Below are positions 2,426 to 31,266 of a stretch of DNA of 32,000 nucleotides, piece by piece. Below the pieces are notes generated by a model. It was given only the letters and a program-made list of their open reading frames with translations. It did not search any database and was not told where the DNA came from. The position numbers and the translations under genes are program-made. Origin of the DNA: an uncultured Chloroflexia bacterium (GTDB taxonomy: Bacteria; Chloroflexota; Ktedonobacteria; Ktedonobacterales; JADMIN01); contig CAVRAI010000014.1 in the NCBI GenBank assembly GCA_963718915.1, forward strand, positions 180,001 through 212,000. Direction: 5' to 3'. Each line of letters opens with the position of its first letter. Positions within the stretch are counted from its first letter, which is position 1.

Positions 2426-2584
2426 GCCCCCACCATCACGACAAATTGTGGCCGATTCCTGATAGTATACGATTTCTCCTTCTCTGGCTGCGCGCTCAGA
2501 ATGGAAGATGCGGGCACGGCGCTTGCCAGAAGGGGCGCCTGTCGGATACAATGCGGAGGCGAACGAAACACCACGTTTCGGCTG

Positions 2585-2668
2585 GCCGGTGTGGCGGAAT
2601 GGTATACGCGGCAGTCTCAAAAACTGCTGCCCTTCACGGGCTTGTGGGTTCGAGTCCCACCACCGGCA
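2585..2668 (+). tRNA. tRNA-Leu (anticodon CAA), class II with long variable arm
   Basis: Manual cloverleaf: acceptor GCCGGTG/CACCGGC, D-stem GCG/CGC with GG loop, anticodon stem GCAGT/ACTGC with loop CTCAAAA, variable arm GCCC-TTCAC-GGGC, T-arm GTGGG-TTCGAGT-CCCAC, discriminator A. CCA is not encoded (ACCT). Confidence 0.9.
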
Positions 2669-2738
2669 CCTTACCTCTAGTTTTCCTCTTTTACCTCTGC
2701 ACTGCACAAATAGTCAGGAAGTAGGGCCGCCCTACTCG

Positions 2739-3248
2739 ATGATATCTGTCCTCATGCGACCATTTTTTGGATATGCCTCGGAGGGAATGAGGGAACACTT
2801 CATGGAATCGGATTCTCGGCTATGTCCACGCTGCGGCGAGGTAAAGCCTTTAACGGAGTTTACCCGTGATCGCAGCAAGAAGTCTGGCTATCACGGCTTG
2901 TGTAAGCGGTGCAATTATCTTCGCCTGAAGGACAAACTCGGTTCCGAGCACTACCGACGGTATCGAAAGGAATGGGAACTTCAGCATCGCTATGGAATGA
3001 CCAGCGCTGAGTATGCTCAAAGAATAGCAGAGCAAAGCGGCCTCTGCCTTATTTGCGGATCGCAGTCTGAGAGGCTTGTAGTTGACCACAACCATAAAAC
3101 GGGACAGGTTCGAGGGCTTCTATGTGTCTCATGTAACGGCCTTCTCGGACTTGCCAATGACAGCGAACATGTTCTTATGGCAGCAATCGACTACCTGCGG
3201 GCGTTTGCCGTTAAGGAAGCCACTCAACCGAGTGCAGTTTGCGGGTAA
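2739..3248 (+). CDS. Recombination endonuclease VII-like (Endonuclease_7 / HNH-type) protein
   Basis: Motif LVVDHNHKTGQVRGLLCVSCNGLLG plus an N-terminal CPRCG...CKRCN zinc-ribbon pair. The computed ORF 2508-3248 overlaps the tRNA, so the real start must lie downstream of 2670. Candidates are ATG 2739, 2754 and 2802; 2802 has GAGGGA 7 nt upstream and may be the true start. Confidence 0.75.
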   Translation: MISVLMRPFFGYASEGMREHFMESDSRLCPRCGEVKPLTEFTRDRSKKSGYHGLCKRCNYLRLKDKLGSEHYRRYRKEWELQHRYGMTSAEYAQRIAEQSGLCLICGSQSERLVVDHNHKTGQVRGLLCVSCNGLLGLANDSEHVLMAAIDYLRAFAVKEATQPSAVCG

Positions 3249-11589: not shown

Positions 11590-14462
11590 ATGAAGGACGC
11601 CCAAACACACGTCGATCCCCTTCTGGCGGGCCTGCGGCGGTGGCTGGCCTTGCTCTGGACGCCCATGAATCGTCGCCGGGCATTGCTCGTCCTCGCCTTC
11701 GCTTTCGCCTATGCGGCGATCTATCGCTTTCAAGATACCCTGCCGCTTCCCCCCGCCCTGGATCCCGCGGGCGCGCTCCTGCTGGCGAGCTGCCTGCTCC
11801 TGCCACCTCGCCGCTGGTGGCCGTACCTGCTCGCGGCAACTGTCGTCCAGGTCTGGATCTTTGGGATGTTTCACCTGCCAGCGCCGGTTGGGCTGATGAT
11901 CTGGATCGCGAATCTCGCTGAGCCTATCATCATTGTCTACCTGCTGCGGCGCGCCGACCCCTTCGGCACAATACCCACACGCATTACCAACGTGCGGGCA
12001 GTCGCCCTCTACGCAGCCTGCGTGCTCGTCGGCGCCGTTATCTCCGCTTCGCTGGCCGCCATCGGGTTCTCCGCCACTGGCCGCCTGTTCTGGGCCTCAT
12101 GGTGGACCTGGTTCCTCAGTGTCTGCTTAAGCGCGTTGGTGCTCGCGCCCACCATAGTCCTGTGGGCGATTGGCAACTATCGCGGCCCACAAACGGCCTC
12201 CAGGCGCCAGGCGCTTGAAGCTGGCCTGGTATTCGGCGCGCTCCTGCTCGTCGGGTTCGTGGTCTTCGATAGTCACTTGCAGGGCCAGTACGTGACTCTT
12301 GCGCCGGTGCTCATCTATTTCCCCGTGCCGTTGCTGCTTGTGGGTGGCGGCGCGCTTTGGCCAGCGCGCTACAATGACCGCCCTCTCGCTGATCTGCCTG
12401 CTCGCCATCGTCGGCGTCGCGCAGAGAGCAGGGCCGTTCATTTCCCTCTCAGCGCGCGACAGTGCGCTCGCGTTGCAGGTCTTTCTGCTCGTCATTGCGG
12501 TACCGCTTGTCATTGTGGTGACGCTGCTCGAGGAGCGCGTCCGGGTGCTTGCGAAGGAGCAGGTCAGCGAAAAGCGCTATCGTGCCTTCTTCGAGTTGAA
12601 TGCGGTCGGCGCGGCCCAGGCCGACCCGCACGAGGGGCGGCTGCTCAGCGTCAATGAGGCGTTCTGTCGCATGACTGGCTATTCGCGGGAGGCGTTGCTC
12701 GGCAAGCCCTTCACTGCGATCACGCACCCAGAGGATCGCGGGACGAATCTCGCTGAGTATCAGTCCCTGTTCCGTGGAGACATTCATCGGATTGGCGCGC
12801 AGAAGCGCTATATTCGTGCCGACGGCCAGACGATCTGGGTTCAGGCGGATGCGACGATGCTCCGCGACGAGAAAGGTGAGCCGCTGCAAATCCTTGTTAT
12901 CATCCAGGACATCACCGAACGTAAGCAGACGGAGGAGGCGCTACGACTCAGCGAAGCGCGCTACCGTATGGCCTTCGAGTCTGCCGCGACCGGCATGATG
13001 CTCGTCGGCCCCGATGGCCGCTCGCTCAGTGTGAATCGTCCGCTCATGGCGATGTTAGGCTACTCGGAAGAGGAGTTCCACACGCTCAAGTTTGAGGACT
13101 TCACCTATGCCGACGACCTGGATCCCAACCTGGACCTCTTCCAGCAGGCACTGGCCGGCAAGATTGATAGCTACCAGATGGAAAAGCGCTTTATCCACAA
13201 GCAAGGCCACGTGGTCTGGGGTCTGCTGAGCGCCGGACTTGTGCGGGATGACGCGGGCAAGCCACTCTACTTCGTCGGCCAGATTCAGGACATCACGGAG
13301 CGGCGGCGGGCCACGGAAGAATTACGGGCAAGCGAAGCGCGATTCCGCCTCATGGCCGATACAGCCCCGGTGCTGATCTGGCTCGCTGGCCGCGATGGAC
13401 TGGTGACGTTCCTCAACGTCCCATGGCTGCGCTTCACCGGACGCGCCCTCGACCAGGAGCTTGGCGATGGATGGGCCGCGGGCGTACATCCCGATGATCG
13501 CTCCCGGTGCCTTTCGACCTATCGCGTGGCGCTACAGGCGCGCCGGGATTTTACCATGGAGTACCGCCTGCGGCGTTTCGACGGCGAGTATCGCTGGCTC
13601 GTCGATACAGGCGTCCCGCGTTACTCGCCCGACGGGACTGTTCCTGGGCTATATCGGCTCAGCCATCGATATCACCGAGCACCTGCGCGCGGAGGAACAG
13701 CTCAATCGCCTGAGCACGCAGTTGCTGCGGGCGCAGGACAACGAACGGCAGCGAATCGCCCGCGAACTGCACGATAGCACGGTGCAGACCATCACCGCCG
13801 TCAAGCTGAACCTGGGCTTGCTGCGCCGTCACCTGGGGCGCGACGGATCGAGCGGCGGTAAGTTCGCCGACGTCCTGGACGAGGGCGAGGAGTTGATGGA
13901 TCAGGCCGCGACCGAGCTGCGCACGCTCTCCTATCTGCTGCATCCACCCATGCTCGACGATATTGGGCTGGCCGCGGCGATCTCGTGGTACGTCGAGGGA
14001 TTCGCCCGTCGCAGCGGCCTGCGCATCGAGCTGGAAGCGCCAATCGATCTGGGACGCCTGCCCGCGCAGGTGGAGACATCGCTCTACCGCATCGTCCAGG
14101 AGGCGCTCTCCAATGTGCATCTCCATTCGGGCAGCAAGAGCGCGCGCATCCGGCTGAACAAGCGCGCGAACGCGATATGGTTGCGCATCCAGGACCGCGG
14201 CAAAGGGATGCCAGCCGCGATCATGCAGAACGGAGCCGGGGGGAACGGAGGCGCGCTGGATAGCACACCCGACGGCGCTCCCGCGCTGGGGGTGGGCATC
14301 GCCGGTATGCGCCAGCGACTCAGGCAACTGGGTGGCCGCCTGGAGATCCGCTCGACGAGTCACGGCACGACGATCACGGCGGTTGTGCCGCTGGCCACAA
14401 TGCCCGCGCGTGAGAGCGTTCTGGAGGGCGCGCATAGCGATGATGAGCCTGGGATGGCGTAA
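11590..14462 (+). CDS. Sensor histidine kinase, MASE1 - 3x PAS - HisKA_3 - HATPase_c (two apparent 1-nt frameshifts as sequenced)
   Basis: Three overlapping ORFs (11590-12657, 12299-13777, 13461-14462) encode consecutive parts. First, a multi-TM MASE1-like N-terminus. Second, PAS modules (SVNEAFCRMTGYSREALLGKPF; SVNRPLMAMLGYSEEEF; FLNVPWLRFTGRALDQELG). Third, an H-box ERQRIARELHDSTVQ and an ATPase region (IQDRGKGMP...GIAGMRQRLRQLGGRLEI). Deleting one G at 12342-12344 and one G at 13634-13636 restores a single frame. GGGAGG lies 9 nt upstream of ATG 11590. Confidence 0.85.
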
Positions 14463-24543: not shown

Positions 24544-25140
24544 TTGGGGAATCCGGCACGCACAGACGAAGAGACGCTGCTCATGCGACGTGTGGCAGCG
24601 GGCGACGAAGAGGCGCTCGGGCTGCTCTACGACCGCCTGGGCCGCCCCGTCTACGCCCTGTGCCTGCGCATCGTTCGCGACAGCGGCGCTGCTGAGGAGC
24701 TCACGCAGGAGACGTTTGTCCGGCTCTGGCGGAGCGCGGCCAGCTTCGACGTGGAGCGTGGCCGGGTGAGCACGTGGCTGCTGCGCATTGCCCACAATCT
24801 GGCGCTCAACGAGATTCGGCGGCGGCGGAGTCGGCCCGTCGTCGCGCCTGAGGTGGAGTGGGAGACCGCCACCAGCGCGCTTGCCGATCCCAACACCGAG
24901 GGCGATCCGGCGCTGGCAAGCGATCTGCGCGAGCGGGCTGAGGTGGTGCGGGCGGCGCTGGCCGAACTGCCGACGCCACAACGGCAGGCAATCGAGCTGG
25001 CGTTTTTCGGTGGGCTTTCCCAGGCGGAGGTCGCCGCCGCGCTCGGCGATCCACTCGGCACGGTCAAGAGCCGTATCCGCATTGGCATGCAGCGCCTACG
25101 CGAGCAACTAATAGCAGCAGGGATGGATGGGACAGGCTGA
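24544..25140 (+). CDS. ECF-type RNA polymerase sigma-70 family factor
   Basis: Region 2 (LYDRLGRPVYALCLRIVRDSGAAEELTQETFVRLW) and region 4 (LPTPQRQAIELAFFGGLSQAEVAAALGDPLGTVKSRI). TTG start at 24544 with AGGAG 7 nt upstream. Confidence 0.9.
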   Translation: MGNPARTDEETLLMRRVAAGDEEALGLLYDRLGRPVYALCLRIVRDSGAAEELTQETFVRLWRSAASFDVERGRVSTWLLRIAHNLALNEIRRRRSRPVVAPEVEWETATSALADPNTEGDPALASDLRERAEVVRAALAELPTPQRQAIELAFFGGLSQAEVAAALGDPLGTVKSRIRIGMQRLREQLIAAGMDGTG

Positions 25141-25877
25141 TGGACAGGCAAGATAGGCAAGACGAACACGTGGACAACCTCCTAGACGCCTATGCGCTTG
25201 GCGCATTGGAGACGGACGAAGTCGCACAGGTCGAGCGGCATCTGGAGACATGTGACGAGTGTCGGGCGCTGCTCGATGCCGTGCGCGTCGTGACCGGTGA
25301 ACTGCTACTTGCCGTCCCCCAGGCTGCGCCGCCCCCCGCGCTACGCGGACGCATCCTCAGTCGCATCCACGACGAGGCCCAGCCAGCGAGTCAGCCCAGC
25401 GAGCACGCGCCAGCGCCTCAGACCGAGGCGACGCGCCCCGGACGTATGGGGCGGTTGCTGCGCTCGCTCTTCGGCGGTGAGACGCCAGAGATTGCCGATA
25501 GCGACGCCGATACACTGTTGCGCGATCTGCTGCTCGATCCACAGGTCACCATCAAGCCTATCGCTGGCGCCGAGCACGCCAGCCATGCGTCCGCCCGCTT
25601 TGTCAGCACCCCTACGCGCCATGAGGGAATCGTCCTGGCGCAGGGGCTGCGTCCGCTGGATGCCCAGCACGCCTATCAGGTGTGGTTATTGCGTGACGGC
25701 CAGCCGCAGCCCAACAACGTCTTCACGGTTGACCACGCTGGCAGGGGCATAGGCATCGTCCGCGCTAGTGAGGCGCCGCTCGACTTCGACGTGCTGGCGA
25801 TCACCCCGGAGCCAGTGGGCGGAAGCCCCGCGCCAACGGGCGAGATCATGCTGGCTGGCGCGCTCAGGGGCGAGTGA
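25140..25877 (+). CDS. Anti-sigma factor (zf-HC2 N-terminus, RskA-like C-terminal domain)
   Basis: The start overlaps the sigma stop (TGATG). Contains HLETCDECRALLD (HxxxCxxC) and a C-terminal YQVWLLRDGQPQP...LAITPEPVGGSPAPTGEIMLAG, typical of the anti-sigma-K/RskA extracytoplasmic domain. Confidence 0.85.
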   Translation: MDRQDRQDEHVDNLLDAYALGALETDEVAQVERHLETCDECRALLDAVRVVTGELLLAVPQAAPPPALRGRILSRIHDEAQPASQPSEHAPAPQTEATRPGRMGRLLRSLFGGETPEIADSDADTLLRDLLLDPQVTIKPIAGAEHASHASARFVSTPTRHEGIVLAQGLRPLDAQHAYQVWLLRDGQPQPNNVFTVDHAGRGIGIVRASEAPLDFDVLAITPEPVGGSPAPTGEIMLAGALRGE

Positions 25878-26232: not shown

Positions 26233-27672
26233 ATGCTGATGACGCTTACCTGTTACGCGCCGAACGCCTCCGATGTCGGTTATCTGCTGGGCAAGAACCC
26301 AGCCTCGACCTTCGAGCGCCCATTTTCAGCGGGCACGGTCTGGGTCTTCTATCCTGAGGTGGCGGACGATCATGTCACCGTGGCGCTGCTCACCGAGATC
26401 GATCCGGTTGGTCTGGTGCGCGGCCCCGCTGCCCTCGCGCAGCTTGACCAGTATGTCAACGACCGGCCATATGTCGCGTCCAGTCTCACCAGCGTCGCGC
26501 TCAAAACCGCCTTCAGCACGGCGCTTGCGGGACGTAGCGCCAGCCCCAGCCGCAACGGACGCCTGGATGAGCGGATGCGCTGGGTGGTCACGCTGCCCGC
26601 AGTCGCCTGCGATGGCGGGGACGACCTGATCCAGCGTATCTTCGCGCCGCTCGGCTATACCGTCATCGCCGACCAGTCGCCACTGGATGAGCGCTTCCCC
26701 GCGTGGGGCATGGCGAACGTGTATCGCGTCACCCTCGACGGCGCGCAGACCGTACAGGATGTTCTCAGCCATCTCTACGTGCTGCTACCGGTGCTCGATA
26801 ACAGCAAGCACTACTACGTCGGCGAGGAAGAGACCGACAAGCTGCTGGCGCATGGCGGGGCGTGGCTCGCGGCGCACCCCGAGCGCGACCTGATCGCGCG
26901 GCGCTATCTGCGCTACAAGCGTCCGCTGGTGCAGTCGGCGATTGACCGACTCATCGCGGCGGATACTTCGGCGCCCACTGAGGCTGACGCTGAGGCCGAG
27001 GGCGACGAGACGGCCCCGCCAGCGGAAGACCCCGCCGAGCCAGAAATGGGCCTGCACGAGCTACGGCTGAATACCGTACTGGCGGTCATCCGTGAGGCGG
27101 GCGCGCACTCGCTGGCCGATCTCGGTTGTGGCGAGGGGAAGCTGCTCGCGCTGGCGCTCAAAGAGCGGACGCTGACACGCATTCTGGGCATGGATGTCTC
27201 GTCCGTCGCCCTGACACGCGCCCGTCGCCGTCTGCGCCTGGATACCTTGCCGACCGCGCAACGCCAGCGAATCGAGGTGGCGCAGGGTTCGCTGCTCTAC
27301 CGCGATCAGCGGCTGGCGGGCTTCGATGCGGTCTCGCTGGTGGAGGTGATCGAGCATCTGGACCCGCCACGGCTGGCGGCGATGGAGCGCGTCGTCTTTC
27401 AGCATGCCCATCCGCGCCGGGTGATCGTCACCACACCCAACCGCGAATACAACGCGCACTGGCAGCCCGTTGGCGAGACGCGCCTGCGGCATAGCGACCA
27501 CCGCTTCGAGTGGACTCGCGCCGAGTGCCGCGCCTGGGCGGAGCGTGTCGCCGCGCGCTATGGCTATCGCATGGCGCAGCGGGAGCTTGGCCCGGCTGAT
27601 GCCGACCTGGGCGCGCCCTCGCAACTGGTCATCTTTGATCGACTCACCGAGGGTGAGGGCGGAGAGCTATGA
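26233..27672 (+). CDS. hen1: Bacterial Hen1, 3'-terminal RNA ribose 2'-O-methyltransferase (RNA repair)
   Basis: 479 aa. The N-terminus MLMTLTCYAPNASDVGYLLGKNPASTFERPFSAGTVWVFYPE...LLTEIDPVGLVRG matches the bacterial Hen1 N-terminal domain. C-terminal SAM-MTase motif I is LADLGCGEGKLL. It sits in the same locus as pnkp. Confidence 0.85.
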   Translation: MLMTLTCYAPNASDVGYLLGKNPASTFERPFSAGTVWVFYPEVADDHVTVALLTEIDPVGLVRGPAALAQLDQYVNDRPYVASSLTSVALKTAFSTALAGRSASPSRNGRLDERMRWVVTLPAVACDGGDDLIQRIFAPLGYTVIADQSPLDERFPAWGMANVYRVTLDGAQTVQDVLSHLYVLLPVLDNSKHYYVGEEETDKLLAHGGAWLAAHPERDLIARRYLRYKRPLVQSAIDRLIAADTSAPTEADAEAEGDETAPPAEDPAEPEMGLHELRLNTVLAVIREAGAHSLADLGCGEGKLLALALKERTLTRILGMDVSSVALTRARRRLRLDTLPTAQRQRIEVAQGSLLYRDQRLAGFDAVSLVEVIEHLDPPRLAAMERVVFQHAHPRRVIVTTPNREYNAHWQPVGETRLRHSDHRFEWTRAECRAWAERVAARYGYRMAQRELGPADADLGAPSQLVIFDRLTEGEGGEL

Positions 27673-27682
27673 AGATGCGGCG

Positions 27683-27711
27683 TTGAACTGGGAAGTTCCG
27701 CTCTGTATGCT
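27683..27711 (+). promoter_or_regulatory. Candidate sigma-70-type promoter for the mntA-hepT cassette (TTGAAC-17 nt-TATGCT)
   Basis: TTGAAC at 27683-27688, a 17-nt spacer, then TATGCT at 27706-27711 (immediately followed by ATACTT). It lies in the 122-nt lower-GC gap after hen1. This is a pattern match only. Confidence 0.3.
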
Positions 27712-27794
27712 ATACTTTCCGTGCACTGCGTTAACACATGATTTGATGCTTGCGCCATATCGTTAAGCCAGATATTCAGGCGAATTAGGAGGAT

Positions 27795-28175
27795 ATGTCG
27801 GAGCTTATGAATACGTCAAGTTCCTCTAAATCCCCGCATATCCGAGCGCCGAACCGGATTACGCCCTCACAACGGTCGGCTCTCATCGCGGTGCTCCGCC
27901 GCTATGGTGTGCAGCGTGCGGGTTTATTCGGCTCGATTGTTCGTGGTGACGCCCGCCCCGACAGTGACGTCGATATCTTGATCCAACCCCCATCGACCAT
28001 GTCGCTCTTTGGGCTCTCGGAGCTGGCGCTGACGCTTGAGGATCTGCTCGGGCGCCCGGTAGATCTGGTCACCTATGCATCCCTGCATCCCCGCCTGCGC
28101 GAAAGCGTCTACGCACATTACGATCAGCTTTTTACGAATGATATGGACGAGGTCGGAGCCAACCCAACCGTATGA
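27795..28175 (+). CDS. mntA: MNT-type nucleotidyltransferase antitoxin (MntA-like, type VII TA)
   Basis: Contains GLFGSIVRGDARPDSDVDILI (GS-x-x-RG ... D-x-D), the minimal nucleotidyltransferase motif. AGGAGG precedes the ATG. It is directly followed by a HEPN/DUF86 ORF. Confidence 0.85.
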   Translation: MSELMNTSSSSKSPHIRAPNRITPSQRSALIAVLRRYGVQRAGLFGSIVRGDARPDSDVDILIQPPSTMSLFGLSELALTLEDLLGRPVDLVTYASLHPRLRESVYAHYDQLFTNDMDEVGANPTV

Positions 28176-28187
28176 TCACTGGCGATT

Positions 28188-28622
28188 GTGCTATTCCCAC
28201 GAGTGAGACAGGCCCAGAAGGGCAGAAAGTGGAATCGCATCGTGTCATCTGCCTCATCGCGCGCCCCAGACATTCTCTTGCGTGAAATGCTCGATAGCAT
28301 CGCCCGGATTCAGCATTATGTCCAGGGAACGACAGAGGCGCAATTCGTGCAGAATCTCGAAAAACAGGATGCGGTTGTGCGGCGTCTCGAAATTTTGGGT
28401 GAGGCTGCGGCGCAGTTGCCAGTGGACTGGAGAGCGCACCATCCAGGCATCCCGTGGAGGACAATCGCGGACACACGAAACCGCCTCATCCATGGCTACT
28501 TCAACGTTGATCTCGCTATTGTCTGGCAGACGATCACTCACGATATTGGACCACTAGAGATCGAGTTGCGAAACATCCTTGCCAGAGAATTTCCTCCAAC
28601 GTCCGCGCCACCGACTCCCTGA
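28188..28622 (+). CDS. hepT: HEPN-domain (DUF86) RNase toxin HepT-like
   Basis: R-x4-H motif in TRNRLIHGYF, preceded by LEILGEAA, typical of DUF86/HepT. The start is uncertain: GTG 28188 gives the longest ORF, and GTG 28242 or ATG 28287 are alternatives. Confidence 0.8.
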   Translation: MLFPRVRQAQKGRKWNRIVSSASSRAPDILLREMLDSIARIQHYVQGTTEAQFVQNLEKQDAVVRRLEILGEAAAQLPVDWRAHHPGIPWRTIADTRNRLIHGYFNVDLAIVWQTITHDIGPLEIELRNILAREFPPTSAPPTP

Positions 28623-28662
28623 TATTGAATCTTTGTGGGATACATTAGGAATACATCCATCG

Positions 28663-31266
28663 ATGAGTGAGCAACATCCAGAGGAAACGCAAGAGGCGCG
28701 GGTCTGCCCGATTCCCGATCTCTGCCTCGTCGCGCTGATTGGACCGACAGGTTCGGGCAAAAGCACCTTCGCCGCGCGCCACTTCAAGCCGACGGAGGTG
28801 CTGAGTTCCGACACCTTTCGTGCCATCGTCGGCGACGACCCGAACGACCAGTCCGTGACATCCGCTGCCTTCGACGCGCTGCACTACGTCGCCGGGTTGC
28901 GCTTGGGGTTGCGGCGGCTGGTCGTGGTGGACGCCACCAACGTCAAGCCGCAGGATCGCGCCGCGCTCATCCGCACCGCCCGCGAGCATGATGTGCTGGC
29001 CGTGGCGTTCGTCCTCAACATCGACGAGCGCATCTGCGTCGAGCGCAACAAGACCCGTCCCGACCGCCAGCTTGGCCCCCGAGTCGTCCAGAATCATCTC
29101 CAGCAGCTTCGTCGCGGTATGCGAGGCTTGCAGCGTGAGGGCTTCCGCTATGTCTATTACCTGAACTCGCCGCAAGAGGTGGATGCCGTCACCATCACCC
29201 GGACGCCGCTCTGGACCGACCGCCGTGGCGACACTGGCCCGTTCGATATCATCGGCGATGTCCATGGCTGCTACGACGAGCTACTCGAGTTGCTGGCTCA
29301 ACTGGGCTACCACTCGGACGCCGAGACGGGCGTGCGCCATCCCGACGGGCGGCGGGTCATCTTCGTCGGCGACCTGGTGGATCGCGGCCCGAAGGTCGTC
29401 GAGACGGTCACTCTGGCGCGGCGGATGGTAGCGACGGGGCAGGCGCTCTGCGTCCCCGGCAACCATGATGCCAAGCTCGCGCGCTACCTCAAGGGCAAGA
29501 GTAAGAAGATGCAGATCAGCCACGGCCTGGCGGAGAGCATCGCCCAGATCGAGGCGCTGCCCGAGGCGGAGCGGGCATCCTGGCGCAGAGACTATCTGGC
29601 CTTCGCCGACGAGCTTGTCTCGCACTACGTTCTTGCTGGTGGCGACCTGGTTGTGGCCCATGCGGGCATGAAAGAAGCGTTTCAGGGGCGCGCGTCGGGC
29701 CGTGTCCGCGATTTCGCGCTCTTTGGCGAGACGACCGGCGAGACCGACGAGTTCGGCCTACCGGTGCGCTATAACTGGGCCGCCGACTATCGCGGGCATG
29801 CCGCCGTCGTCTACGGCCATACCCCCGTACCGGAGGCCGACTGGCTCAACAACACGATCAACATCGATACCGGCTGCGTCTTCGGCGGCAAGCTCACAGC
29901 GCTGCGCTGGCCGGAACGCGAGCTGGTGAGTGTCGCCGCGCATCAGGTGTACGCCCAGCCCGCCCGCCCGCTGGCCGCCTCGGACGATGAGGCCACTGAC
30001 GCCATCAGTCAGGCGACCGATACGCTGCTGCGCATCGAGGATGTGGTGGGCAAGCAACTAGTCTCCACGCGGCTGGCGGGCAATGTCATCGTCGAGGAGG
30101 ATCAGGCGGCGGCGGCGCTCGAAGTGATGAGCCGGTTCGCGCTCGATCCGCGCTGGCTGATCTATCTGCCGCCGACGATGTCGCCCAGCGAGACATCACG
30201 CCAGCCGGAATGGCTCGAATATCCCTCGGAGGCGTTCGGATACTTCCGTGGTCAGGGTGTGCCGCGCGTGGTCTGCGAGGAAAAGCACATGGGTAGCCGT
30301 GCCGTGGTCGTGCTCTGCCGCGATCTGGCGACCGCCGCGCGCCGCTTCGGCGTCAGCGATAGCGCCGCCCCCGGCGCGTGCTACACCCGCACAGGCCGCC
30401 GCTTCTTCGACGACGACGCGCTCGATACCGTATTCATCACCCGGCTCTCGCATGCGCTCACCACCGCTGGATTCTGGGAGCGTTTCAATACCGATTGGGT
30501 CTGTCTGGATGCCGAATTGCTGCCGTGGAGCGCCAAGGCGCAGGGGCTGCTGCGCGAGCAATATGCGCCCAGTTGCCGCCGCTGGGCAGGCCGCGCTGGC
30601 AATGGCGCTAGCCTCCGCCGAGTCGGCGCTGGCGCAGACCGCCGGAGTGAGCGGCGCTCATCGAGCGGCTGCGCGCCCGCCAGGAGAATATCGCGCGCTA
30701 TGCCGACGCCTACCGCCGCTACTGCTGGGAGACGGACGGGCTGGATCGCGTGCGCCTCGCGCCATTTCATCTGCTCGCCACCGAGGGGCGCACCTACTTC
30801 GACCGCGACCATCTCTGGCATATGCGCGAACTGGCGCAACTGGCGGAGGCCGATCCGCTCTTCCTCGCGACGAACTATCGCGCAGTCAACGTGCTGGACG
30901 AGACGGAGTGCGCCGAGGCGGCGGCCTGGTGGGAGGCGGCGACCGATGCGAGCAGCGAAGGGATGGTCGTCAAGCCGCTCGACTTCATCGTCCGAGGCTC
31001 CCGTGGCCTCGTGCAGCCCGCGCTCAAGATTCGTGGCCGTGAATATCTGCGCATCATCTACGGGCCAGACTACACCGAGCCAGCCAACCTGGAGCGGCTG
31101 CGCCTGCGCGGGATTGCGCTTCAAGCGCGCACTGGCCGTCCGTGAGTTCGCCCTGGGTGTCGAGTCGCTGGAGCGCTTCATCCGCCGCGAGCCACTCTGG
31201 CGCGTGCACCAGGCGGTCTTCGCGGTGCTGGCGCTCGAATCGGAGCCGGTTGATCCGCGGCTGTGA
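28663..31266 (+). CDS. pnkp: Polynucleotide kinase-phosphatase/ligase Pnkp (RNA repair); ligase domain carries three apparent +1 frameshifts as sequenced
   Basis: P-loop kinase GPTGSGKST (about 28741). Metallophosphoesterase motifs GDVHGC / GDLVDRGP / GNHD (29254-29470). Ligase motif-I-like EEKHMGSR (Lys codon about 30283). Conserved ligase sequence after about 30570 is encoded successively in frame 2 (VAAAGQAALAMALASAESALAQTAGVS), frame 3 (LIERLRARQENIARYADAYRRYCWETDGLDRVRLAPFHLLATEG...EGMVVKP...KIRGREYLRIIYGPDYTEPANLERLRLRG) and frame 1 again (LRFKRALAVREFALGVESLERFIRREPLWRVHQAVFAVLALESEPVDPRL*). Frame 1 itself stays open throughout. Confidence 0.85.
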   Translation: MSEQHPEETQEARVCPIPDLCLVALIGPTGSGKSTFAARHFKPTEVLSSDTFRAIVGDDPNDQSVTSAAFDALHYVAGLRLGLRRLVVVDATNVKPQDRAALIRTAREHDVLAVAFVLNIDERICVERNKTRPDRQLGPRVVQNHLQQLRRGMRGLQREGFRYVYYLNSPQEVDAVTITRTPLWTDRRGDTGPFDIIGDVHGCYDELLELLAQLGYHSDAETGVRHPDGRRVIFVGDLVDRGPKVVETVTLARRMVATGQALCVPGNHDAKLARYLKGKSKKMQISHGLAESIAQIEALPEAERASWRRDYLAFADELVSHYVLAGGDLVVAHAGMKEAFQGRASGRVRDFALFGETTGETDEFGLPVRYNWAADYRGHAAVVYGHTPVPEADWLNNTINIDTGCVFGGKLTALRWPERELVSVAAHQVYAQPARPLAASDDEATDAISQATDTLLRIEDVVGKQLVSTRLAGNVIVEEDQAAAALEVMSRFALDPRWLIYLPPTMSPSETSRQPEWLEYPSEAFGYFRGQGVPRVVCEEKHMGSRAVVVLCRDLATAARRFGVSDSAAPGACYTRTGRRFFDDDALDTVFITRLSHALTTAGFWERFNTDWVCLDAELLPWSAKAQGLLREQYAPSCRRWAGRAGNGASLRRVGAGADRRSERRSSSGCAPARRISRAMPTPTAATAGRRTGWIACASRHFICSPPRGAPTSTATISGICANWRNWRRPIRSSSRRTIAQSTCWTRRSAPRRRPGGRRRPMRAAKGWSSSRSTSSSEAPVASCSPRSRFVAVNICASSTGQTTPSQPTWSGCACAGLRFKRALAVREFALGVESLERFIRREPLWRVHQAVFAVLALESEPVDPRL

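Follow-up and report, generated by a model that had tools for sequence, protein, structure and literature searches.

A HepT/MntA-type toxin-antitoxin pair resident between hen1 and pnkp in a clade of Ktedonobacteria-like bacteria

Breaks in the anticodon loop of tRNA are a lesion that the bacterial RNA-repair proteins Pnkp and Hen1 are known to mend, and the 2'-O-methyl mark that Hen1 leaves should protect the site from any nuclease whose cleavage relies on the 2'-OH. The Pnkp/Hen1 system has been reconstituted in vitro, and we know of no report of the RNA damage that it answers in its own host. Here we analyze a 32,000-nucleotide stretch of DNA from an uncultured Chloroflexia bacterium (contig CAVRAI010000014.1, positions 180,001 to 212,000; hereafter the window), in which two small genes, mntA and hepT, lie between hen1 and pnkp. 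We find that these genes have the sequence features of a type VII toxin-antitoxin (TA) pair of the HepT/MntA kind, that the pair is a conserved resident of this site in one clade, and that the junction which it occupies is used for other cargo elsewhere in bacteria.

Results

A gene pair inserted between hen1 and pnkp

The first-pass annotation of this DNA had proposed four co-directional genes, hen1, mntA, hepT and pnkp, and both the open reading frames (ORFs) and the Pfam matches bear this out, with all four ORFs lying where it had placed them. The features of the operon are as follows.

26233-27672, + strand: hen1; Pfam Hen1_L at 3e-86 (residues 1-240) and Methyltransf_12/25/23; ORF intact
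27683-27688, + strand: TTGAAC hexamer, first proposed as a -35 element; unconserved among relatives
27705-27724, + strand: conserved block GTATGCTATACTTTCCGTGC, reading as an extended -10 (TG at 27708-27709, TATACT at 27711-27716)
27795-28175, + strand: mntA; NTP_transf_2/Polbeta at 6e-14; motif GSIVRGDARPDSDVD; AGGAGG ribosome-binding site (RBS) upstream; alternative ATG at 27807
28176-28241, + strand: mntA-hepT spacer, 66 nt
28242-28622, + strand: hepT; 126 aa from GTG 28242; ORF opens at 28188; Pfam domain from ATG 28287
28623-28662, + strand: hepT-pnkp spacer, 40 nt; AGGAA RBS; without a terminator-like site
28663-31266, + strand: pnkp; kinase ~28726-29124, phosphatase ~29239-29832, ligase from ~30112; ligase frame broken
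30567-31113, + strand: out-of-frame segment of pnkp, its edges being single-base insertions; holds ligase motifs IV and V

The distance between hen1 and pnkp amounts to a 990-nt insert, within which the intergenic gaps are 122 nt between hen1 and mntA, 12 nt between mntA and hepT (66 nt with the corrected hepT start discussed below) and 40 nt between hepT and pnkp. The lower G+C content noticed earlier for the pair and its gaps also holds, at 0.53-0.58 over positions 27600-28800 versus 0.64-0.70 in the flanks, and G+C at third codon positions (GC3) is 0.59-0.65 in mntA and hepT versus 0.79-0.82 in hen1 and pnkp. The window Hen1 is 94% identical to the protein labeled P0001 and combines an N-terminal, Pnkp-binding Hen1_L domain with a C-terminal methyltransferase domain; it is predicted to be an RNA 3'-terminal ribose 2'-O-methyltransferase with a Pnkp-binding domain.

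The pair has the hallmarks of type VII HepT/MntA

HepT matches the Pfam family PF01934 (HepT-like; HEPN, DUF86 type) with E = 3.2e-28 over model positions 1-120 of 120. It carries an R-x4-H motif followed by a tyrosine, RNRLIHGY, and this motif is nearly invariant across 32 homologues. A search of the Protein Data Bank (PDB) with the single HepT sequence gave no match, and a profile was required to reach a solved relative: the family profile aligned RNRLIHGY to R, H102 and Y104 (H102-D-Y104) of Shewanella oneidensis HepT (5YEP_B) with E = 1e-6. The catalytic residues are retained in all of the lineages that carry the cassette. MntA has the minimal Pol-beta nucleotidyltransferase motif GS-x10-DVD (GS-x10-DxD in its general form; GSIVRGDARPDSDVD in the window). 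Its PDB matches are 1WOT, a minimal nucleotidyltransferase from Thermus (9e-15), and, weakly, S. oneidensis MntA (5YEP_A, 1e-3). MntA also matches the PADLOC model PDC-S09 (E = 1.3e-25), a name that stands for a candidate defence system and not for a tested function, and HepT gave no match to the PADLOC models. A Pfam search with MntA gave no hit to PF10127, the RlaP family.

The order of the genes is that of an antitoxin-first bicistron, with mntA ending at 28175 and hepT starting at 28242 on the same strand. The 66-nt spacer between them is atypical: in a free-standing homologous pair (L116; such L-numbers are labels of the surveyed relatives and Hen1 loci) the two genes overlap by 4 nt. The start of hepT had first been placed at 28188, which the comparison with relatives does not support. 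Two findings make GTG 28242 the most likely start: in the L083 lineage, the hepT frame is closed by stop codons within 28188-28241, and the form that begins at this GTG is matched over 100% of its length by close database homologues of 126 aa.

The earlier identification of an MNT gene and a HEPN gene as a HepT/MntA pair is thus upheld by the Pfam matches, the GS-x10-DxD motif and the alignment of RNRLIHGY to S. oneidensis HepT. At the level of sequence, the pair shows every feature of type VII HepT/MntA that can be tested. One characterized HepT homologue reportedly trims tRNA 3' ends. By analogy with such systems, the HepT studied here would be a toxic HEPN RNase, and MntA would hold it off by AMPylating the tyrosine next to R-x4-H, the residue that MntA oligo-AMPylates in characterized pairs (PMC13000451).

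A conserved block that reads as an extended -10 precedes mntA

A promoter-like site had been noted upstream of mntA, and its two hexamers are indeed present in the window sequence (TTGAAC-17-TATGCT, 27683-27711), with the -10 part falling in conserved sequence. The -35 part fared less well: in the alignment of relatives the TTGAAC position reads TGGAAC, TGAGGC or CCGGGC, and a two-hexamer consensus scan reported neither this site nor the conserved block next to it. What is conserved is the block GTATGCTATACT(T/C)TCCGTGC at 27705-27724, which is invariant save for one T/C position in seven cassette-bearing lineages, while its flanks vary. The block reads as an extended -10, TGnTATACT, and, to judge by this conservation, it is likely the promoter or operator of the cassette. 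Because a terminator scan found none between hepT and pnkp, transcription from the cassette promoter should continue into pnkp, and the cassette and pnkp would then be co-transcribed.

The cassette is conserved at one site and diverges with its neighbors

Relatives were gathered by exact look-ups and a metagenome scan, and they come from independent assemblies of many samples. At least seven lineages, whose Hen1 is 80-94% identical to that of the window, carry the cassette at the same site. The question of whether its adjacency to hen1 and pnkp is conserved or unique to this strain is thereby answered in favor of conservation. These lineages are the window itself; L083/84/106/119/120/123/124; L109/111; L112-114; L002; L115; and L107/L085. 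They form one clade in a neighbor-joining tree of Hen1. In the outgroups, whose Hen1 is at most 74% identical, hen1 and pnkp are adjacent or separated by other cargo, and the cassette insert is absent.

The insert has diverged to much the same extent as its surroundings. Its nucleotide identity is similar to that of the flanks, and the synonymous divergence (dS) of hepT between the window and L083, L112 and L115 (0.29, 0.52 and 0.71) tracks that of both hen1 (0.37, 0.50 and 0.81) and pnkp (0.41, 0.39 and 0.64). Because the lineages make up one clade, share one site and show this agreement in dS, the sequence data fit a single capture followed by vertical descent. The ratio of nonsynonymous to synonymous divergence (dN/dS) against relatives points to purifying selection on all four genes (hepT 0.06-0.15; mnt 0.12-0.41; hen1 0.08-0.16; pnkp 0.09-0.20).

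These comparisons make it very improbable that a selfish element landed recently in this strain alone, or that unrelated DNA was joined here by an assembly artefact. Such an origin would agree with the lower G+C and GC3 of the insert, and the frameshifts in pnkp and in a sensor kinase gene (both described below) do call the quality of the sequence into question. However, the same architecture recurs at the same site in independent assemblies and metagenomes with a divergence that matches the flanks, and it is this conservation among lineages that refutes the explanation.

Some features of the relatives deserve separate mention. In the public contigs, gene calls miss intact hepT genes and truncate or miss mnt (L119, L120, L123, L124 and L112-L114); therefore, surveys based on annotation would under-count the cassette. 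A degenerate MNT in L112-L114 and an absence of hepT from L119/L120/L123/L124 were considered and rejected, since translation shows both genes to be intact. Among L002, L109 and L111, the mntA-hepT spacer and hepT (28176-28622) are 95-98% identical, versus ~89-91% for hen1 and pnkp, and in this comparison hepT dS is 0.09-0.16 versus 0.40 for pnkp. This excess similarity suggests that these lineages have recently exchanged the toxin segment or, alternatively, that the spacer is under constraint.

Two further genes in the window form the upstream context of hen1.

24544-25140, + strand: ECF (extracytoplasmic function) sigma factor; Pfam Sigma70_r2/r4; context of hen1 only
25140-25877, + strand: RskA-type anti-sigma factor; Pfam zf-HC2 and RskA_C; directly upstream of hen1

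This sigma/anti-sigma synteny upstream of hen1 is present in L001, L002 and L115 and absent from L112 and L119.

The hen1/pnkp junction is a recurrent cargo slot

Two aspects of gene order had been singled out at first: hen1 preceding pnkp, taken to be the reverse of the usual order, and the interruption of the operon, taken as a departure from the characterized loci. We surveyed the junction with a Hen1-alignment scan of species-representative genomes. Of more than 600 matches, 80 loci drawn from many phyla were examined; a pnkp gene could be recognized in 70 of these, and the counts of order and gap rest on those 70. In all 70 loci that hold both genes, pnkp lies downstream of hen1 on the same strand, and the supposed reversal is therefore the rule. 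The interruption is real in the window but not a rarity. In 48 of 70 loci the two genes adjoin or overlap, with at most 100 nt between them, the overlap being of the ATGA type in close outgroups and in L001, and more than 300 nt separate them in 20 of 70 (29%).

The commonest cargo consists of paired RlaP (PF10127) nucleotidyltransferases, which occupy the slot in nine loci, six identified by Pfam and three by similarity; PF10127 matches were found in slot proteins of L022, L028, L034, L063, L069 and L076. Other loci carry a Shedu SduA nuclease (L027, 8398-9537), a PDC-M38A/B pair composed of an AbiL-like ATPase and its DUF3226 partner (L031, 1702-3488) or an Mrr_cat-TPR protein (L074, 8377-10410). 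In one locus from Planctomycetia (L051, 8371-9837), an ApeA-like HEPN protein lies between hen1 and pnkp with gaps of only a few bases; it matches ApeA_NTD1, HEPN_Apea and PADLOC PDC-S58 and has the motif RNYFTH. The remaining cargo includes a HEAT-repeat protein, a radical SAM enzyme, an FMN-binding protein, a PhyH dioxygenase and several unknown proteins. Slot cargo is mostly co-directional and tightly packed. As a crude control, we took the largest ORFs flanking the operon directly, either upstream of hen1 or downstream of pnkp (114 in all). No family recurs among them (at most two members each), and they include one RlaP, one RtcR and one Thg1. Because cargo is present in 20 of 70 loci while the flanking ORFs show no recurrent family, we regard the junction as a slot that recurrently takes up cargo, and interruption of the operon is in itself not unusual.

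Two other arrangements were seen during the survey. The unrelated loci L046 (3321-3779) and L022 (11395-11829) each have a protein of ~150 aa, unknown and without a Pfam match, directly upstream of pnkp, with the common motif VANI(K/R)KEHP(F/Y)GPGG.ETK.GTRQF. In the Ktedonobacteria-like locus L087 (7407-11185), two genes on the opposite strand (646 and 613 aa) separate hen1 from pnkp, so that the operon is physically split.

The contents of the slot bear on the idea that the operon is a dedicated module for RNA damage and repair. HepT would then be its cognate ribotoxin, which cuts RNA and halts translation once MntA control is lost on phage infection or stress, and the 2'-O-methyl group placed by Hen1 at the mended junction would prevent recutting and make the arrest reversible and self-limiting. 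The presence of an independent ApeA-type HEPN RNase in the same slot (L051) argues for this idea, as do the RlaP repair nucleotidyltransferases found there in nine loci and not as a recurrent family in the flanks. Further points in its favor are the co-inheritance of the cassette with hen1 and pnkp, the low dN/dS of hepT, the lack of a terminator between hepT and pnkp and, from general knowledge, the chemistry of HEPN products, which fits Pnkp/Hen1 substrates. In the wider taxa, however, the association does not recur: HepT/MntA is found in none of the 80 Hen1 loci from other taxa. A local hidden Markov model scan of these 80 loci with their 7-kb flanks found no HepT-like ORF outside the clade and one weak MNT-like ORF. 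The idea is also weakened by the promoter-like element that the cassette retains, and by the finding that MntA alone is enough as an antidote in characterized systems (PMC13000451). Moreover, if HepT trims tRNA 3' ends as its characterized homologue does, the small piece cut off would be gone, and sealing could not bring it back.

Toxin losses and free-standing relatives

Within the clade, hepT has been inactivated or deleted in three lineages in which pnkp is intact. In L002, two in-frame TAG codons interrupt hepT, and pnkp is a single frame; in L106, hepT has one stop codon; and in L107/L085, hepT has been cleanly deleted, leaving an orphan mnt that ends ~20-35 nt before pnkp. L001, whose Hen1 is the closest (94.6%) and which branches within the cassette clade, has the repair genes without the cassette and with an ancestral-type ATGAGTGA overlap between hen1 and pnkp. 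Both the losses and L001 speak against the dedicated damage-repair module, which we consider the main rival of our preferred model, possible but on balance unlikely.

The hepT stops in L002 are TTG-to-TAG substitutions, but in the same 1.65-Mb contig hen1 (9660-11098) is split by a frameshift, with many small indels relative to the window, and the quality of this assembly calls for caution. A cassette remnant in L001, or a duplicated pnkp 5' end in the mntA-hepT spacer, was rejected: the best alignment score, 20, was equaled by 101 of 300 shuffles.

Relatives of the pair also exist outside the operon. The next-closest HepT (64% identical, L116-L118) belongs to a free-standing mnt-hepT pair in an unrelated context elsewhere in the genome. 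A second free-standing pair (L121/L122, 5001-5810), with an MNT 68% identical to the L107 MNT used as the query, has an intact mnt, and its hepT is disrupted by a frameshift and by a stop codon; such decay is ordinary for TA pairs and here took place outside a repair operon. GC3 is low in captured and free-standing copies alike, and no direct or inverted repeats of the kind left by transposition were found bracketing the insert.

The survival of mnt raises the alternative that MntA has been co-opted, that is, selected as an accessory nucleotidyltransferase of RNA repair much like RlaP, with HepT a dispensable passenger in the course of being lost. In keeping with this, mnt is intact in every cassette lineage, including L107/L085 after the deletion of hepT, its dN/dS is 0.12 between L107 and L115, and the commonest cargo of the same slot, RlaP, is another Pol-beta-family enzyme. 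We nevertheless regard co-option as improbable. Purifying selection is stronger on hepT than on mnt in five lineages, MntA lacks a PF10127 match and has antitoxins of free-standing pairs as its closest relatives, and the orphan mnt occurs in one lineage only; an antitoxin that outlives its toxin is the usual order of TA decay (compare L121/L122).

The ligase frame of pnkp is broken in the window

The description of pnkp (28663-31266) as a gene with kinase, phosphoesterase and ligase motifs stood in part. All three domains are recognized by Pfam (AAA_33 kinase, Metallophos and PNKP_ligase), but ligase motifs IV and V fall outside the main frame, and the window does not encode Pnkp as one intact kinase-phosphatase-ligase polypeptide. 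The PNKP_ligase match is split: the main frame covers model positions 1-153, and a different frame covers 211-334. Likewise, tblastn of the intact L002 Pnkp against the window returned four pieces in frames 1, 2, 3 and 1. Three single-base insertions, at ~30567-30571, 30649-30652 and 31113, shift the true frame from 1 to 2, to 0 and back to 1, and they are identical in DNA alignments of the window with L084, L112, L115, L002 and L001. As a result, motifs IV and V (EGMVVKP and KIRGREY) fall within ~540 nt of the ligase domain that are translated in the wrong frame. The long ORF stays open by chance, because the insertions total three bases and the DNA is G+C-rich. By comparison, pnkp is a single frame in L001, L002, L083, L084, L112 and L115, and ~11 kb of neighboring coding DNA has no frame-shifting indels relative to L084 or L112. 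The frameshifts reflect either sequencing error or real gene decay. An intact HepT beside a frameshifted Pnkp ligase would be a further point against a dedicated damage-repair module, although one that counts only if the frameshifts are real.

Elsewhere in the window, a sensor histidine kinase (11590-14462) is spread across three ORFs that overlap and lie in frames 1, 2 and 0. The first holds MASE1 model positions 4-230, the second MASE1 230-298 and PAS, and the third HisKA_3 and HATPase_c, which implies two further +1 shifts (~12338 and 13680-13745) of the same sign as those found in pnkp. Rfam searches at gathering thresholds and tRNA searches of the window found only a tRNA-Leu at 2585-2670 and nothing near the operon. 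This tRNA-Leu(CAA) lies inside a long ORF (2508-3248) whose C-terminus matches Endonuclease_7 (1e-23), and the region may be the edge of an integrated element.

Discussion

Our results support a model, to which we assign a probability of roughly 55%, in which a canonical HepT/MntA pair was captured once in the cargo slot of an RNA-repair operon and acts there as an autonomous TA system or anti-phage/defence RNase, with read-through into pnkp. An ordinary Ktedonobacterial pair would have entered the hen1/pnkp junction in the ancestor of one Ktedonobacteria-like clade, breaking the ancestral ATGA-type overlap that coupled the two genes and bringing its own extended -10 promoter. It would then have descended vertically together with its two neighbors, maintained by purifying selection apart from an occasional loss of the toxin, and repair of HepT products by Pnkp/Hen1 would be an opportunistic benefit and not a requirement. 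Several observations argue for autonomy: the conserved extended -10 that belongs to the cassette, the lack of HepT/MntA from the 80 loci of other taxa, a nearest outgroup homologue that is free-standing, the loss of the toxin with hen1 and pnkp intact (L002, L106 and L107), and the absence of the cassette from the nested L001.

Nonetheless, four observations weigh against autonomy. Up to a dS of ~0.9, purifying selection constrains hepT no less than hen1 and pnkp, a stability beyond what would be expected of a merely tolerated insert. Genes for RNA repair and for nucleases are frequent among the slot cargo, in contrast to the 114 flanking ORFs, in which no family recurs. An unrelated HEPN RNase, the ApeA-like protein with the RNYFTH motif, is tightly packed into the same slot in L051, and ApeA cuts tRNA anticodon loops (bioRxiv 10.64898/2026.01.26.701840), a lesion of the kind that Pnkp/Hen1 mends. 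Finally, the orphan mnt has been kept between hen1 and pnkp after the deletion of hepT in L107. Taken together, these observations favor a functional link. A coupling of HepT to repair is plausible, and the conserved residence inside a repair operon, maintained over a long evolutionary span in one group of soil bacteria, hints at a cutter paired with its own mender. As to the two alternatives raised by the first-pass annotation, the evidence speaks against a recent selfish landing in this one strain and against an obligate module of damage and repair.

The implications of the slot may outweigh those of this one cassette. The parts are of known kinds, and the cassette alone is a modest curiosity. 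A full-text literature search found no description of HepT/MntA, or of HEPN proteins generally, inside Pnkp-Hen1 operons, although an earlier mention in older RNA-repair work is possible, and a 2013 survey of HEPN proteins makes no mention of Hen1 or RNA repair. A ribotoxin that lies inside the operon and is kept by selection would be a natural candidate source of the damage that Pnkp/Hen1 answers. Combined with the presence of a second HEPN RNase and an occupancy of the slot of 29%, the conserved residence of the cassette offers a lead on that damage that can be tested. Because ~29% of operons have extra genes at the same position (RlaP, a HEPN tRNase, Shedu and the AbiL-like ATPase pair), our survey suggests that RNA-repair operons are assembled with interchangeable effectors. 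A bolder extension, which we hold to be more doubtful still than the dedicated module, is that Hen1-Pnkp operons have a modular effector slot in which embedded HEPN ribotoxins (HepT/MntA or ApeA) form self-contained, reversible modules of RNA damage and repair immunity. The cell would cut its own tRNA or mRNA to stall a phage, and then heal, seal and 2'-O-methylate the junction against recutting. If this were true, the embedded toxins would be long-sought sources of natural substrates for bacterial Pnkp/Hen1. If the link is non-functional, the locus is still a clear case of a TA pair that turned into a stable, vertically inherited resident of a host operon.

Comparison with known systems

The pair resembles the solved HepT/MntA of S. 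oneidensis in having mntA upstream, a PF01934 toxin with R-x4-H and an acceptor tyrosine, and GS-x10-DxD in the antitoxin. It differs in its low similarity (profile E = 1e-6) and in being stably inherited inside an RNA-repair operon. The domain sets of Hen1 and Pnkp, their common orientation and the upstream position of hen1 are those of the Pnkp-Hen1 cassettes of Clostridium thermocellum and Anabaena variabilis (PMC3675462), but the usual adjacent or overlapping junction is replaced here by a 990-nt insert, and the ligase in the window has three frameshifts.

Closer parallels are found among operons with accessory genes. RlaP (PF10127), an RNA-ligase-associated Pol-beta nucleotidyltransferase that adds one or two nucleotides to damaged RNA 3' ends, is already known in RNA-repair operons (PMC12776372). 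Hen1-RlaP-RlaP-Pnkp operons share with the window accessory genes in the same slot and on the same strand, one of them in the window being likewise of the Pol-beta superfamily (PMC12776372). In contrast, MntA here is of the minimal antitoxin type, not PF10127, and it is accompanied by a HEPN toxin and a promoter-like element of its own, whereas RlaP cargo is tightly packed without separate promoter-like spacers. ApeA, a HEPN abortive-infection nuclease that cuts tRNA anticodon loops (bioRxiv 10.64898/2026.01.26.701840), provides in L051 a second R-x4-H HEPN RNase in the slot. Unlike HepT, it is a single large protein with no antitoxin that is activated by a ligand (bioRxiv 10.64898/2026.01.26.701840). 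It also belongs to another HEPN family and another phylum, and it was found at one locus only.

The contest between the anticodon nuclease PrrC and phage T4 Pnk/Rnl1 likewise opposes a tRNase to end-healing and end-sealing enzymes, and PrrC is itself cited as a HEPN protein (bioRxiv 10.64898/2026.01.26.701840). In that case, nuclease and repair lie in the opposing genomes of host and phage, whereas here they share one operon in one genome.

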